From Candidatus Hermodarchaeum yapensis (GTDB lineage Archaea; Asgardarchaeota; Hermodarchaeia; Hermodarchaeales; Hermodarchaeaceae): a stretch of DNA of 54,847 nucleotides. The stretch spans positions 1 to 54,847 of the forward strand of contig JAEOSK010000018.1 in NCBI GenBank assembly GCA_016840405.1. Reading direction: 5' to 3'. Both the position numbers and the translations under genes were made by a program. The stretch's first letter is position 1. Each line of letters starts with the position of its first letter. The notes below the pieces were generated by a model. It did no database searches, was not told where the DNA came from, and saw nothing but the letters and a program-made list of their open reading frames with translations. This document shows positions 11,767 to 33,188 of this stretch, one piece after another.

Positions 11767-12309
11767 TTAGGGGACTCGACCACGAACGCGGTTGATGGCA
11801 TAGAGAGCAATGCGCTCAAAGACATTTTCGATGTTATCGCCATCTTTTGCGCTGGTTTCGATGAATTCAGCACCGAGTTGTTTGCCCATTCCTTGACCTT
11901 CGTTCTCTTCTACGACTCGTTCATCTTTAAGGTCAATTTTATTACCGATTACGATTTTGAGTGATTCGCCTGCGTGCTTGTCAACTTGACGTGACCAAGT
12001 GGGCAGGTTGTCAAAACTATCGCGGTTCGTGATGTCATATACCATCAAGGCACCTATGGCGCCAATGAAATATCGCTCCACGAGGTTCCGAAACCGTTCT
12101 TGACCAGCCGTATCGTAAATCAGGAGGGCGATGCGTCGTCCCTCGACGGTGACGATTTTCCGGAAAATGTCAGTACCAATAGTCGCCTTGTAGGAGGATT
12201 CAAAGGATCCGGTGACGTATCGTCCTGCGATACTTGTTTTTCCTACGGCTGCATCGCCTACTGCGATTACTTTTAATGAAACATCTGCGTCATCAATGCC
12301 GCTTGTCAA
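11767..12309 (-). CDS. Rab-like small GTPase
   Basis: G1 GDAAVGKTS, G2 TIG, G3 DTAGQERF, G4 NKID, G5 ETSAK; RabF-like motifs. Confidence 0.95.
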   Translation of the reverse strand: MTSGIDDADVSLKVIAVGDAAVGKTSIAGRYVTGSFESSYKATIGTDIFRKIVTVEGRRIALLIYDTAGQERFRNLVERYFIGAIGALMVYDITNRDSFDNLPTWSRQVDKHAGESLKIVIGNKIDLKDERVVEENEGQGMGKQLGAEFIETSAKDGDNIENVFERIALYAINRVRGRVP

Positions 12310-22682: not shown

Positions 22683-23267
22683 TCAGGTGTTGCCAGGCTT
22701 CGGAGGATAAACTTCATCCTGATCGAGTGCAATAAATTTGTTGCCTTGATTAACGATACGAATCCCCTCTCGATTTTCCCACCGGATTAAACCTATAAGT
22801 GATAACCAAAAACCGGATATTGATGCCCCCATAATGAATGAGAACAATGCTAATGTCATTGACACAAAAAGTGGATTTAGCCAGGAGTGAAAGGGCCATA
22901 GCCATGCTATTACACCAAAGATTGGAATCCAAATTATCATAGCTATGAGGGCATTCCGTGTTGCTTTTGTTTGTCCGAAAGGTTTGGGCACAAAGAAGGG
23001 AAGCCGTTTAAGCCAACCTAATGTATATCGAATTTGTAAAGCCCAACTGGATCCTAACCCACAGAAGAAAAGGATAAGACCTAGAGGATTGAAGAAGAAT
23101 ACGAGAAACCCAGAAAATATGATCCACCAGACAATTAGGATCCATATACTACTCCAAATGATGTTAACAATCCAGTATCGGTTTCGCAGAATATCCCCCG
23201 GGCTTATACTTGTCTCTTCTAGTTCTTTTCCCTCGTCCATAGTGTGAACCACCAGTTGGTAATTCAA
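22683..23267 (-). CDS. Hypothetical membrane protein (about 4 TM)
   Basis: Four hydrophobic, Trp-rich segments. Confidence 0.65.
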   Translation of the reverse strand: MNYQLVVHTMDEGKELEETSISPGDILRNRYWIVNIIWSSIWILIVWWIIFSGFLVFFFNPLGLILFFCGLGSSWALQIRYTLGWLKRLPFFVPKPFGQTKATRNALIAMIIWIPIFGVIAWLWPFHSWLNPLFVSMTLALFSFIMGASISGFWLSLIGLIRWENREGIRIVNQGNKFIALDQDEVYPPKPGNT

Positions 23268-25103: not shown

Positions 25104-26423
25104 TTACTTCGGGGATGGTCGTCGAATGCGATAAAGAAAAATCGCGAAGATAATCGCTACGATAGCAAGTACACCAGTGATAGTAAAGGCTAAGAAGTAA
25201 CTTCCAGTGAAGTCGACGATAAGTCCTGCAGCAAGGGCACCTGTGATTCCAGCAACCCCGTAGGCCGTGAAGAGAACACCGTAATTTGATCCAACATTCT
25301 TGGTCCCATAGTAATCAGCGGTGGATGAGGGGAAGAGGGCAAAATTTCCACCAAAGCAGAAACCCACTAAAGATGCTACGATCATGACAGTAATCCAGCT
25401 CGCGTAAGTTGTGCTAAGAAAAGCGAAGCCGAACATGCCAATAGTGAGTAGAGTGAACATAATCACCATGGTAGATACTCTTCCAATGCGGTCTGAGAGA
25501 GCACCCCATACGATTCGACCGATAGCATTGAAGATTGACATAACGCCGACGATTATGGACGCGATTACTCCCCAAATCGGAAGACTTGAAGTGAGGGGAT
25601 CAATAGCTGCGGCAGCGGATTTTACATTCCCTAAGGTCATGAGACCCGCTGTGGCTGCGAAGAGAAACATGAACCATAATAACCAGAACACAACCGTTAC
25701 AATCATTTCTCTTGGAATGTAATCTTTACCTTTGGCGTTTGCTGTACCTGGTGAAGAGGTGTATCCTGGTGGTGTCCATCCAAGTGGGGGGTTGGTTAGT
25801 AATTGTGATCCAGAGACGACTAGTACAAAGTACAATATACCTAGGATTATGAAAGCTCCACCAACAAGTGGAAATATCATTGGTAAACTTAGTAGCCATG
25901 TTTCGACGTAACCCATGACAAGGGCACCAGCCCCGAATCCAGCAACGGCAACACCGGTAATGAGTCCTTTCTTGTCTGGGAACCATTTTACAAGGGCTGC
26001 AATGGGGCAAACGTAGGCAAACCCAATACCAGCTCCGGCAATTATTCCGTAAGTAAAAATAAGCCAAGCTGTACCGATAATTGGATTACCTTGACTGATG
26101 ATATCAACAAGCCCAGCAAGGAGGTAGCCAGTAGCGAGTAATATTCCGCCAAGTGTAGCTACTTTTCGTGGACCAATTCGGTCCTGATAGTAACCAGCGA
26201 TAATCATGAACGTTGCGAAGGAAGCGAGACCTGCTGCGAATGGTAGTTGGGTTAAGAGGGAGGGCCAGACATAGATGCCTTCTCGTAGAGCGGCTTGAAA
26301 GATTGACCAAGCATAGATTGATCCCAGACAGACTTGGATAATGAGGGCACCTAATACGACAAGATAACGTCGAGAGCTACTGATTTTGATTTCCTCTGAC
26401 ATAGCGATACACCATCCATGCAA
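25104..26423 (-). CDS. MFS transporter, oxalate:formate antiporter (OFA) family
   Basis: GSIYAWS, KWFPDKKGLITG..VAGFG, GRIVWGALSDRIGR and NYG motifs. Confidence 0.9.
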   Translation of the reverse strand: MHGWCIAMSEEIKISSSRRYLVVLGALIIQVCLGSIYAWSIFQAALREGIYVWPSLLTQLPFAAGLASFATFMIIAGYYQDRIGPRKVATLGGILLATGYLLAGLVDIISQGNPIIGTAWLIFTYGIIAGAGIGFAYVCPIAALVKWFPDKKGLITGVAVAGFGAGALVMGYVETWLLSLPMIFPLVGGAFIILGILYFVLVVSGSQLLTNPPLGWTPPGYTSSPGTANAKGKDYIPREMIVTVVFWLLWFMFLFAATAGLMTLGNVKSAAAAIDPLTSSLPIWGVIASIIVGVMSIFNAIGRIVWGALSDRIGRVSTMVIMFTLLTIGMFGFAFLSTTYASWITVMIVASLVGFCFGGNFALFPSSTADYYGTKNVGSNYGVLFTAYGVAGITGALAAGLIVDFTGSYFLAFTITGVLAIVAIIFAIFLYRIRRPSPK

Positions 26424-26531: not shown

Positions 26532-28958
26532 CTAGAAGACTTCTGTAGGAATCAATAGCTTCTTCTCTCGAAGCTCGAAAATAGCATTCATTAACTCGGT
26601 GGGTTCTTCCCTAACTGTCTCTAAGTATGAATTCATGATTTCTCCCAAGAAGACTAATTCACTGGATTTTGCTAATTCTAAAGCTACAAAATGGAGACGG
26701 TTTTCTAAAACCGAGAGAGAAAGACCCTTAGACACTTCGGGGACTACTTTGTGAGGGAATAAGAGTGATACATGGAAAATTTCTTCAAGAAGATCATTGG
26801 CCCCAGCAAATATTGCAGGTTCGTATCCTCGTTTTTCTAATTGTTGTAAAAATCTTTCTTCGAATCTTGCAGAAAATGTTTGGATCTTTTCTTTTAACGT
26901 GTCACTGGGAATACCACGATATACAAGGGCGGTTCGAGTATAAGTGCCATCATGAATGATAACTCGAAAACCCTCATAAGAAATTTCGGAGAGCCGGGCT
27001 TGTGTTGGTAGAGCTGAATCATCTGAATTTGAGGCAACATCTATGGCAAAGGCTTGTAACGCTTGTAGGAAACCACCGAACAAAGAGGCATCCATCCCCT
27101 TATCCTTGAATGGATCAAAGATAGCTATTCCAGATCCATGATGAAGAACAAGGAAACGGGAAAGATTGGTCACGTCATTGAACATTTCAAGAACTTCTTG
27201 GAGTTTCCGTGCATGTGCAACACGTTTGGGGATAACATATCTTGGGTTGTAGACCTTGCTGTAAAGAATCCAACCTAAGAGAATGGAAATAAGCAGTATT
27301 ACAGCTAGGATAAGGAATTCAGTCTGAATGCCAAATAATGTTGGTGGAATACCCGTGTTTACAACGACTGAAAATTCCAAGGCAGTTCCCGTTGCGGATG
27401 TAGCGTTCAAATAACCTTCTTTTAGAAATTCAATCTCAATTGAGAGGGGAGAGTCGGAATCAGTTTTAATTATTGGCACATGTATAGCATATGATCCGCA
27501 ACCATTGTGAATCATCGAAATAGTGAATGTACTATTGCTTTTATCTGTATAACGTAATGTGACTGTGGCATTCTTAACAAACAGGCCTAAATCCAAATTT
27601 ATCCAAGAAACATTGACGAATAAGCTGCTCCATCCATAGCGACCATTTGGTACTGGAGAATTCAGAACTGGTTCCGTTTGAATAATGGAAATACAATGAA
27701 TATCAAAGGTTTCGCCAGGGATACCTATGTTCTCGTCCATGAGGAGAAACCGAGTGGTTGCGTTATAAGAATAGCTGTTGATTTTGTTTCCAATTTGATT
27801 TCTCACAACAACCAAATTCCACTCATATGGGAGATGAAGTCCAAATTGATAATTCTGATAGTTCGGAGGAGGTCGACCAGATGGAATAGTATAGTTGATT
27901 ACCCAACTTGGTTCCGAATCAGAAGATACAGTAAAGGAAGAAATCGCTGACTCCTCTCCTTCAGTTTTAACAAACATTGTGTATTGAACATCAAATGTAA
28001 TCGAATCATTTGCTGCAAAAATTAACGTTTGATTCGTATTCCAACCTAGAGAGGGGCTAATTTCCTCTTTTAGAATGGGATCGACATAAATATCAACTTC
28101 ACCATTCGCTGCAAAAGTATCGATAACTTCAGTGCTATTGAGAGTTAACTCCACTCCGCTGGGGGCATCATAGGTGCCTATTTGGTATTCAAAATTATCA
28201 AAGTAGATGAGTCCATCTACATCCAGGTTTGAGCTGTCTGTTTTTTGAAGAGTAATTCGGAGGGTTAGTGACCCATTTACTGGGATCGTTGGAAAGCTAA
28301 TGTGAGTCCATGTTGTTGGGGCAAATTCTGAGGTGGGTTGCCACCACATACCCATTGAATCATTGAGGTGATCTTCGATTTCAACACGTATGATAAACCA
28401 GTCTTCTTTAGTTATATCAGCAGAAAAGCGAATGTCAAAAGAAAGGGTGAGGGTTGTTGGTGTGAATTGTGATATGAATTCAAAGTCATTATCGACATAA
28501 TCTGTCTGGGTTCCTAATACTTTACCATTTTTTAGCTCTAAAACATAGCAAGAACCAGGATTACCTTCAGGTATTGTGTAATTATCTTTAATCAAATCAG
28601 TAGATTGCGTGACTGTCCAATTGTTTCCTGGTTCTGGGTATTGCTCAAAATCACCGTTTGGGATAGGATTTATGGTTTTTCGGAGATCTGTGATTGCTGC
28701 ATGAAGACGATATCCGTAATAATTTGGTGGATAAAAGTCAGAGTTGAAAGTAAATATCGTATCATTGTGGGCGTTGGAGAAGATTGGAGTTTTGTTATGA
28801 CAGTACTCATAGACATCAAGTAAAGACCAAATTTCAGAATTTAAGGATGCAAGCGACTCCACTAAAACTGCGTTTCGATTTTGTGATGCAATACCAGGAG
28901 TAGTGAAGCTAGAGACTAGGATGAGAGCGATGGTTACGTATAGTACGTGTTTCCGCAT
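26532..28958 (-). CDS. Single-pass membrane protein: extracellular beta-rich domains, TM, cytoplasmic longin-like and winged-helix-like domains
   Basis: Signal peptide; NGDFE/YFDN jelly-roll-like motifs; TM near 27260-27320; tail LVLHHGSGIAIF..MDASLFGGFLQALQAF..ISYEGFRVII. Confidence 0.7.
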   Translation of the reverse strand: MRKHVLYVTIALILVSSFTTPGIASQNRNAVLVESLASLNSEIWSLLDVYEYCHNKTPIFSNAHNDTIFTFNSDFYPPNYYGYRLHAAITDLRKTINPIPNGDFEQYPEPGNNWTVTQSTDLIKDNYTIPEGNPGSCYVLELKNGKVLGTQTDYVDNDFEFISQFTPTTLTLSFDIRFSADITKEDWFIIRVEIEDHLNDSMGMWWQPTSEFAPTTWTHISFPTIPVNGSLTLRITLQKTDSSNLDVDGLIYFDNFEYQIGTYDAPSGVELTLNSTEVIDTFAANGEVDIYVDPILKEEISPSLGWNTNQTLIFAANDSITFDVQYTMFVKTEGEESAISSFTVSSDSEPSWVINYTIPSGRPPPNYQNYQFGLHLPYEWNLVVVRNQIGNKINSYSYNATTRFLLMDENIGIPGETFDIHCISIIQTEPVLNSPVPNGRYGWSSLFVNVSWINLDLGLFVKNATVTLRYTDKSNSTFTISMIHNGCGSYAIHVPIIKTDSDSPLSIEIEFLKEGYLNATSATGTALEFSVVVNTGIPPTLFGIQTEFLILAVILLISILLGWILYSKVYNPRYVIPKRVAHARKLQEVLEMFNDVTNLSRFLVLHHGSGIAIFDPFKDKGMDASLFGGFLQALQAFAIDVASNSDDSALPTQARLSEISYEGFRVIIHDGTYTRTALVYRGIPSDTLKEKIQTFSARFEERFLQQLEKRGYEPAIFAGANDLLEEIFHVSLLFPHKVVPEVSKGLSLSVLENRLHFVALELAKSSELVFLGEIMNSYLETVREEPTELMNAIFELREKKLLIPTEVF

Positions 28959-32654: not shown

Positions 32655-33188
32655 GTGGCTGAATCACCCCCTCCACAACGGTTTATTTTCAAGTTCATCA
32701 TCTTAGGTGATTACGCCGTAGGAAAAACTTGCGTCATTCGACGATATGTGTCTGATACCTTTGACGAAGAGTACAAAGCCAGCATTGGAGTAGACATCAC
32801 CTCTCAACAGCTATTCTTTGACCCCCATCAAGTACAACTCCAAATCTGGGACATGTCCGGACAAACGGATTTTCGCGAGCTTCGAAGGCAATTTATGAAT
32901 GGATCGGATTGTGGAATTATCGTTTTCGATGTAACCCGACATAGTAGCTTAGAAAATATTTCTCGCTGGATTAATGAGGCTCGCGCCAATGTTCCGGGCT
33001 TACAGTTCGCATTGGTGGGAAACAAGATTGATCTTGTCGATGAACGTGTCGTTAAACATGAGGAAGCCAAGCAAGTTGCAAAAGAAAATCAGATGCTGTT
33101 TTACATTGAAACTTCAGCAAAATCGGGTTCGAATATCCAACTTCTTTTCAAGAAGTTAGCTCAACTAATACTAGAGCGTATGAAATAA
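32655..33188 (+). CDS. Rab-like small GTPase
   Basis: GDYAVGKT, SIGVD, LQIWDMSGQ, NKID and ETSAK motifs. Confidence 0.95.
   Translation: MAESPPPQRFIFKFIILGDYAVGKTCVIRRYVSDTFDEEYKASIGVDITSQQLFFDPHQVQLQIWDMSGQTDFRELRRQFMNGSDCGIIVFDVTRHSSLENISRWINEARANVPGLQFALVGNKIDLVDERVVKHEEAKQVAKENQMLFYIETSAKSGSNIQLLFKKLAQLILERMK

Follow-up and report, generated by a model that had tools for sequence, protein, structure and literature searches.

A transmembrane, longin and winged-helix cassette as the constant part of a large family of Asgard surface proteins, and its possible relation to small GTPases

Rab-, Arf- and Rag-like GTPases are numerous in Asgard genomes, which also encode more than a hundred longin/roadblock families. 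How these soluble, non-lipidated GTPases reach a membrane, and what their role is where no endomembrane system is known, are the questions touched by the locus described here, an open reading frame (ORF) at 26532-28958 on the minus strand of a 54,847-nucleotide (nt) stretch (hereafter the window; positions 1 to 54,847 of contig JAEOSK010000018.1, assembly GCA_016840405.1) of the Hermodarchaeota-like Asgard archaeon Candidatus Hermodarchaeum yapensis. The product of this ORF, here named P0001, had been read in an initial annotation as a single-pass receptor-like protein with a cytoplasmic longin-like and winged-helix module, and as a transmembrane sensor coupling an external ligand to small-GTPase signalling. 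The architecture was borne out in each of its parts, and the proposed coupling is unproven. Longin and roadblock domains are known Asgard signature proteins (PMC10933270); the new element is an architecture that comprises a signal peptide, a variable ectodomain, a transmembrane (TM) helix, a longin domain and a winged helix. A literature search for a transmembrane or receptor-like longin or roadblock protein in Asgards found none described. We also know of no eukaryotic counterpart of this arrangement.

The ORF was recovered at exactly these positions (808 amino acids [aa] plus stop), and all five motif strings quoted in the initial annotation occur in its translation. Hydropathy analysis revealed only two hydrophobic segments, aa 5-24 and aa 547-567, in line with the signal peptide and the one TM helix that had been proposed. 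The first belongs to a signal peptide (aa 1-24; 28887..28958; all features of the gene lie on the minus strand) that consists of MRKH, a hydrophobic core and PGIA, with putative cleavage at PGIA/SQ. The second is the TM helix (27258..27320), the Kyte-Doolittle mean of which reaches 2.87 over 19 aa. Between the two lies an all-beta, acidic ectodomain (aa 25-546; 27321..28886). The cytoplasmic tail is predicted to consist of a basic membrane-proximal helix (aa 568-597, net charge +3; 27168..27257), a longin domain (aa 598-734; 26757..27167) and an acidic, winged-helix-like C-terminal domain (aa 736-808; 26535..26753).

The tail (aa 570-808) was modelled with AlphaFold2 using an alignment of 68 diverse tails (A2), and the predicted structure has a mean predicted local distance difference test score (pLDDT) of 89 and a predicted template modelling score (pTM) of 0.81. 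In model numbering, to which 569 is added to obtain the protein number, a helix that continues the TM helix (residues 2-28, pLDDT about 93) is followed by strands at 30-37 and 43-45, a helix at 55-75, strands at 87-92, 95-101 and 105-112, a helix at 117-133 and more helices up to 164. The winged-helix part comprises a strand (167-169), three helices (181-196, 202-212 and 217-229) and a further strand (233-235). The beta-beta-alpha-beta-beta-beta-alpha pattern with subsequent helices, which had been predicted from the sequence, is found in the same order in this model, which shows the longin topology b1-b2-a1-b3-b4-b5-a2-a3 with a five-stranded sheet between helices.

A VIA-align search of the tail model against 48,161 representative PDB chains was combined with a second-look search. 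In the first search, the best 46 matches were all longin or roadblock structures (Z 11.4 down to 8.1), including the Loki longin 8yqg, VAMP7, MK-D1 Roadblock3, TRAPP Bet5/Trs23, Mon1-Ccz1, Fuzzy, AP sigma, MglB, LAMTOR and SRX; the second-look search gave 199 chains at Z of at least 8. The best longin match was Sec22b (1ifq_B; Z 12.3, 121 residues, root-mean-square deviation [rmsd] 3.2), and 8yqg reached Z 11.4 in the first search and 11.7 in the second (131 residues aligned), VAMP7 Z 11.4 and MK-D1 Roadblock3 Z 11.3. The alignments to Sec22b, 8yqg and VAMP7 all span model residues 24-165. Foldseek, one of the checks that had been suggested for the tail, returned longin or roadblock structures as every top match in the PDB, but only at E about 1e-3, and the fold assignment is therefore based on the VIA-align Z-scores. 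A tail of another fold had been named as one finding that would speak against the initial annotation, and the fold found is longin/roadblock. Taken together, the model supports the assignment of the tail to a longin/roadblock-superfamily domain followed by a winged-helix-like end.

The Z-scores of longin and roadblock structures against the tail are tied (Z 9.1-11.3 for the latter). However, the longin alignments run through the two C-terminal helices to residues 163-165 (118-131 residues aligned), whereas the roadblock alignments end at residues 132-136 (101-108 residues aligned), suggesting that the topology of the predicted tail is of the longin type. The roadblock (RB) proteins of Asgards (Thor-RB 7f8m, MK-D1 RB 7yh1 and Roadblock3 9jue) resemble the tail over the beta-beta-alpha-beta-beta-beta core (Z 9.1-11.3, 101-106 residues aligned) but differ from it in that RB helix 1 does not align to the N-terminal helix of P0001, i.e. 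the TM stalk. The Roadblock model PF03259 matched one of the 68 tails, at a weak E of 0.19. No Pfam model matched P0001 or its tail at E ≤ 0.1, the longin models (PF13774, PF19036, PF04099 and others) and the helix-turn-helix (HTH) models had no match in the 68 diverse tails, and the models of the longin/roadblock GTPase-platform families matched neither P0001 nor these tails; NCBIfam, phmmer and a profile search of PDB sequences likewise gave no match to P0001 or its tail. The longin a1 helix carries the family motif D..L..GFL.A...F. In the stalk helix, P577 is invariant in 24 full-length homologues and 13 close tails and is conserved in only 50-80% of the 68 diverse tails.

The winged-helix part of the initial annotation was also sustained. 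The C-terminal 65 residues of the tail superpose on the winged HTH of the MecI/BlaI repressors (MecI, 1okr_A; Z 7.9, 61 residues aligned, rmsd 2.2), and the model shows a three-helix bundle with flanking strands; this assignment is a single structural match of a domain that was modelled as part of the whole tail. No single PDB chain among the 48,161 chains and the second-look search matched the longin and winged-helix domains together. NPRL2 and NPRL3 consist of a longin and a C-terminal domain (10.1101/2020.10.19.343400), and the GATOR1 chains match only the longin part of the tail. The MecI/BlaI superposition would agree with P0001 being a membrane-tethered transcription regulator, the winged helix of which binds DNA at the membrane or after proteolytic release upon ligand sensing, and the language-model neighbours include Asgard clusters annotated as TrmB (52%) or HTH_47 (11%). 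However, the winged helix of P0001 (aa 744-808) has a net charge of -4 and an isoelectric point (pI) of 4.9, and its third helix a net charge of -2. The charge of this domain ranges from -6 to +8 (mean +0.9) in 68 family members, so that there is no conserved basic surface, and the conserved positions are mostly hydrophobic; P0001 thus has no basic recognition helix, and no conserved DNA-contact surface was found among these members. With no Pfam HTH match in the same 68 tails as well, a DNA-binding role of the winged helix is unlikely, and we consider a transcription regulator very improbable.

How widely is this tail distributed? The unit formed by the TM segment, the longin domain and the winged helix, hereafter the cassette, is found behind varying ectodomains; what stays constant throughout this very large Asgard family is the cassette and not the ectodomain. 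An exhaustive HMMER search with aa 575-808 identified 565 cluster representatives at E ≤ 1e-3, 228 of them at E ≤ 1e-10; the tail, which is much more widespread than the ectodomain, forms or lies close to the C-terminal end of proteins that measure 250 to > 3,000 aa and have unrelated N-terminal parts (FG-GAP, Big_1 or no recognisable domain). A TM-like segment directly precedes the module in 158 of the 164 members with enough upstream sequence, and the length ahead of the module varies from 26 to 2505 aa (median 701). A cytoplasmic extension of > 100 aa beyond the module is present in 50 of the 164 members; in the ten members with C-terminal extensions that were scanned, the only signals, of the TPR or MIT type, were below threshold. 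Of 151 Asgard genomes drawn from the whole phylum, the A2 profile matches 140, including all 72 of high quality, often with 10 or more copies per genome and in many with at least 18; the module genes in these genomes number at least about 1,600. The tail is better conserved than the ectodomain. The genome encoding P0001 has 12 A2 matches, four of them full cassettes, two of which are cut by contig ends. In the ESM Atlas, the whole module has only hypothetical proteins of Asgards as neighbours (TM-score 0.83-0.85), and the full-length homologues of P0001 (39-82% identity) were found only in Asgard metagenome-assembled genomes, labelled Hermod-, Odin-, Thor- and Promethearchaeota.

Cassette genes also form tandem arrays in other Asgard genomes, namely triples (loci L079, L082 and L084) and pairs (L055, L066 and L067). 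The arrayed genes encode proteins of 750-1,130 aa with related ectodomains, which suggests local expansion of surface-protein paralogues. Cassette genes were very often located at contig ends, e.g. C42:130301-130915 and C55:17277-17438 in the P0001 genome; metagenome assemblies seem to break at these long paralogous genes, and the copy numbers are thus underestimates. Among the ESM Atlas matches, Pseudomonadota OmpA-family and Chloroflexota SH3_3 clusters match the stalk helix and longin domain at a TM-score of about 0.5, and bacteria may have analogous membrane-proximal roadblock-like domains.

Which partner might such a tail have? Its longin domain has soluble relatives. The P0001 genome encodes soluble proteins of 207, 224, 363, 388 and 712 aa with an N-terminal longin of the subfamily of the tail (E down to 1e-16); the tail profile matches the 207-aa paralogue (C77) at 98.3% by hhalign, the 224-aa paralogue (C42) has a hidden Markov model E of 1.5e-16, and the 388-aa protein shows a weak Fuz_longin_1 match. 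A more distant family, A5, consists of soluble proteins of 273 aa, some of which were pre-annotated as PF19036 (Fuz_longin_1). A2 and A5 were aligned by hhalign with a probability of 90.2% (E 1.5e-6) over 129 columns, i.e. the whole longin domain, and two unrelated alpha/beta proteins used as controls gave 0.1-0.2%. In the P0001 genome, each of the two A5 genes (C10 and C63) shares 4 bp with the Ras-family GTPase gene that comes after it, and this coupling was also found in other genomes, for members at 80% and 43% identity and with different flanking genes. By the hhalign result, the longin domain of the tail is remotely homologous to a longin that is translationally coupled to a Rab-like GTPase and that its conserved operon structure marks as a GTPase partner. 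The A5 longin and the overlapping Rab-like GTPase are a clean candidate pair of a GTPase and its guanine nucleotide exchange factor (GEF) or GTPase-activating protein. A5 longins and 8yqg share the fold of the tail and the a1 motif D..LlSGFL. P0001 differs from A5 in its type-I membrane topology, its ectodomain of 520 aa, its winged-helix end and the lack of an adjacent GTPase.

The reading that we tentatively favour is that the cassette is a membrane-anchored longin platform for a partner in the cytoplasm, for which one of the Rab-like GTPases without prenylation is the most plausible candidate. The basic stalk helix would hold the longin domain flat under the membrane, where it would probably dimerise, either with itself or with soluble longin paralogues, and the platform so formed would then dock its partner; the acidic winged helix may provide a second protein-binding surface. 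Many different surface proteins could thus plug into one intracellular machinery, and either direction is conceivable, i.e. information may pass inwards (sensing) or the cell may act on the protein (sorting or clustering). Tran et al. reported that prenylation signals are missing from Asgard Rabs and that, as a rule, GTPase genes do not share operons with roadblock or longin genes (PMC10933270). The first of these observations and the lack of a C-terminal Cys in both GTPases of the window make the need for a protein anchor plausible, and the second renders missing GTPase operons uninformative. The cassette places a longin platform directly beneath the plasma membrane, on the inside of variable surface proteins, and is, being present in nearly all of the Asgard genomes searched, an obvious candidate for the link between GTPases and the membrane. 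In a bolder version, which is in our opinion unlikely, the cassette supplies the membrane anchor that Asgard Rab-like GTPases lack in the absence of prenylation signals, and dozens of different surface proteins per cell each carry a platform on which a small GTPase is recruited or switched at the plasma membrane. If true, this would couple extracellular events, or which surface protein is involved, to GTPase-driven membrane remodelling or sorting, and the cassette would be a prokaryotic forerunner of membrane platforms of the Ragulator, TRAPP and longin-SNARE types. As a short, soluble and well-predicted unit of 240 aa, the tail is testable against a finite set of GTPases.

Among known systems, Ragulator is the nearest working analogy to P0001. 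It is a membrane-anchored roadblock platform that keeps non-lipidated Rag GTPases on the membrane; its anchor is a lipidated subunit, whereas P0001 has its own TM helix. The fold matches to GTPase platforms in general (TRAPP Bet5/Trs23, Mon1-Ccz1, Fuzzy-Inturned, Ragulator LAMTOR, MglB and SRX-SRbeta) reach Z 9.5-11. The tri-longin GEFs (Mon1-Ccz1, Fuzzy-Inturned and HPS1-HPS4) are built from three tandem longins per subunit, and P0001 has one. The longin SNAREs match the fold of the tail domain best (Z 12.3 for Sec22b, 11.4 for VAMP7 and 10.3 for Ykt6, over 118-121 residues), and in both groups the longin domain is held at the membrane by a TM helix of the same chain. However, longin SNAREs consist of a longin domain, a SNARE motif and a C-terminal anchor without an ectodomain, which is the reverse of the order in P0001; P0001 lacks a SNARE coiled coil and shares only 4-7% identity with them, and hence does not have the SNARE architecture.

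The initial annotation had pointed to two Rab-like genes in the window, one of them 3.7 kb away. Both were found. The nearer one (32655..33188, plus strand) encodes a Rab-like small GTPase (Pfam Ras, E 8.7e-50) and starts 3,697 bp from the start codon of P0001; it is a candidate partner only. The other (11767..12309, minus strand) is the second intact Ras-family GTPase gene of the window. In seven of the eight orthologous loci with enough flanking sequence, the P0001 orthologue has an orthologue of the nearer GTPase (60-94% identity) upstream of it, at 0.8-5.6 kb and in divergent orientation, with one to four genes that vary by locus in between. This arrangement is compatible with retained synteny and also with weak selection for linkage. 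In a family-wide test on 90 module genes, none identical to another, that fall into 17 ectodomain groups, the group-weighted GTPase density per 100 kb was 2.7 within 4 kb of a module gene and 1.9 at 4-10 kb, compared with 0.8-1.8 genome-wide. GTPases were the most recurrent neighbour family, present in 5 of the 17 ectodomain groups (3 for the next families), and two P0001 paralogues are followed by a co-oriented Ras-family gene, at distances of 51 and 124 bp.

Several observations weigh against a GTPase as the partner. The three genes between P0001 and the GTPase at 32655-33188 are unrelated, lie on mixed strands and encode a SnoaL/NTF2-like protein, an FGGY kinase and a saccharopine-dehydrogenase-like protein. 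Ras-family genes number 26-30 in the 2.7-Mb genome of P0001, a density of about one per 90-104 kb, so that two in a 55-kb window are only mildly unusual. The 1.5- to 3-fold excess of GTPase genes near module genes corresponds to about three weighted events and is not significant, the sample of 90 genes being too small for this, and in 10 of the 17 ectodomain groups a GTPase gene is absent within 8-10 kb. A GTPase domain fused to the cassette was found in none of 175 family proteins; Roadblock-Ras fusions do exist in Asgards. Asgard genomes without the module still hold 8-9 Ras GTPases (23-69 in those with it), and there is thus no strict co-occurrence. Longin domains also have jobs unrelated to GTPases, e.g. 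in SNAREs and adaptor sigma subunits, both of which score as high against the tail as GTPase platforms do, and a shared fold by itself is no demonstration of function.

A rival reading does without any GTPase. In it, the cassette is a generic anchoring and organising module of the Asgard surface coat that oligomerises and ties surface proteins to a non-GTPase partner, such as soluble longin-winged-helix paralogues, the cytoskeleton or TPR-like scaffolds, and so controls how these proteins are spaced, clustered or turned over. The coat of cultured Asgards is an amorphous layer of protein instead of an S-layer (10.1101/2025.11.06.686947). The unrelated and hypervariable ectodomains (26-2505 aa; FG-GAP, Big_1 and CBM-like) behind a constant tail agree with such a role, as do the tandem arrays of two or three module genes, which are expected of coat or adhesin families, the lack of a GTPase neighbour in most ectodomain groups and the extra cytoplasmic extension (> 100 aa) in 50 of 164 members; the soluble longins of the same subfamily encoded in the genome (207 and 224 aa) are possible heterodimer partners. 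A simple anchor, however, does not need a conserved two-domain module of 240 aa, the nearest longin relatives detectable by sequence outside the subfamily are coupled to GTPases, and a GTPase is still the commonest recurrent neighbour. We regard the coat module as possible though somewhat doubtful; should the tail prove to be a scaffold that works without GTPases, the principal architecture of the amorphous coat of Asgards would still be defined by it.

What does P0001 carry outside the cell? An ectodomain of about 520 aa, rich in beta strands, with jelly-roll or CBM-like motifs and many N-x-S/T sequons, had been proposed, and this description was upheld. The ectodomain (522 residues, pI 4.3) is rich in Thr, Ser and Asn, and contains 15 sequons, compared with 7.6 +/- 2.5 in shuffled sequences and one in the tail of about 240 aa. 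At least four sequon Asn residues (N228, N274, N355 and N518) are invariant in 22 orthologues, and an STT3-type oligosaccharyltransferase is encoded elsewhere in the genome. The AlphaFold2 model, built with these 22 orthologues (alignment A4), is all-beta with a mean pLDDT of 72. Its best-modelled part is a CBM-type beta jelly roll (aa 102-264, NGDFE ... YFDNF; 28167..28655), which VIA-align matched to 2c4x_A (Z 12.2), CBM4-2 (4bj0_A; Z 11.7) and SGBP-B (7kwc; Z 11.4) over 126-136 residues (rmsd 2.6-3.0) and also to CBM6, CBM27, CBM15, CBM11 and CBM16; the CBM structures at Z 12.2, 11.7, 11.2 and 11.1 cover ectodomain model residues 78-240, so that the proposed jelly roll is supported at the fold level. 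A membrane-proximal Ig/macroglobulin (MG)-like beta sandwich (aa 425-535; 27354..27686) superposes on the MG domains of complement C5 and C4 (Z 10.7-11.0, about 100 residues, rmsd 2.4-2.5). According to these models, P0001 is a type-I surface glycoprotein that has one TM helix and the extracellular part of which comprises a CBM-like jelly roll together with Ig/MG-like sandwiches.

The jelly roll raises the possibility that this orthologue is a glycan-binding surface protein that captures polysaccharide, like the SGBPs of Bacteroides, with the tail merely holding it in the membrane. Beyond the matches of the jelly roll to CBM4, CBM6, CBM15, CBM27 and SGBP-B (Z 10-12), an FGGY sugar kinase gene located 0.6 kb upstream and an MFS gene on the same strand, located 108 bp downstream and conserved among the orthologues, are in line with this. 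However, the MFS protein is of the L-lactate/oxalate-formate type (SfMCT) and not a sugar carrier, there is no adjacent glycoside hydrolase gene, no Pfam CBM model matched P0001, and the stronger conservation of the tail would be left unexplained. We therefore judge glycan capture to be improbable. In its overall layout, the ectodomain resembles those of Eph and of the receptor phosphatases RPTP mu and kappa (MAM-Ig-FN; Foldseek E 1e-7 to 6e-6), which likewise have one TM helix and a folded cytoplasmic domain; the TM-scores are low (0.16-0.21), so that the likeness is one of layout only, and the cytoplasmic part of P0001 is the predicted longin and winged helix, not a kinase or phosphatase.

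Several observations were made on the genes around P0001 and its relatives. The MFS gene (25104-26423, minus strand) 108 bp downstream of P0001, the product of which was assigned to the L-lactate type (NCBIfam SfMCT, 380 bits, above the cut-off), may be co-transcribed with it; an MFS gene lies at the same position in two Pfam-annotated orthologous loci, and ORFs of similar size in several others. A sugar-uptake locus was considered and ruled out, since this MFS protein is of the L-lactate type and the other neighbours are unrelated housekeeping enzymes. The divergent neighbour of P0001 (29136-29531, plus strand) encodes a SnoaL_2/NTF2-like protein of 131 aa (weak NTF2 Pfam match, E 9e-4) that is also found in two Pfam-annotated orthologous loci, and ORFs of 135-143 aa are located at the same place in other orthologous loci, separated from the P0001 orthologue by one extra gene in three of them and, in one locus, forming the sole gene between the P0001 orthologue and the GTPase.

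Near larger cassette genes, a Ras-family protein of 367-373 aa is encoded divergently at about 1 kb from a gene for a cassette protein of 1,567-1,873 aa in three Asgard genomes (L050, L054 and L060); that of L050 (6687-7793, minus strand) is a Roadblock-Ras fusion according to Pfam. The A5 longin-GTPase pairs are located at C10:18528-20131 (L090 509-2115) and C63:9814-11192 (L092 434-1812) and show sub-threshold Fuz_longin_1 matches. The genes for the 224-aa and 207-aa soluble paralogues (C42:37004-37675, L004 1505-2176, and C77:8118-8738, L005 1619-2239, respectively) have no GTPase gene beside them, their neighbours including IFT52-GIFT-like, AAA-lid/VWA and STT3 genes. The 207-aa protein has an HTH-looking C-terminus, and the two proteins together resemble the cassette minus the TM helix and ectodomain.

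A weak hint of expression of the P0001 gene comes from RNA data: a sediment metatranscriptome contains one identical contig of 254 nt inside the gene, and an oligo-dT library two contigs of 151 nt, each at a depth of about 2, in runs that had been chosen with the P0001 gene itself. Finally, an ORF of 194 aa in the window (22683-23267, minus strand), which matched no Pfam or NCBIfam model, has a counterpart of the same length in the syntenic locus L002 (13696-14280).

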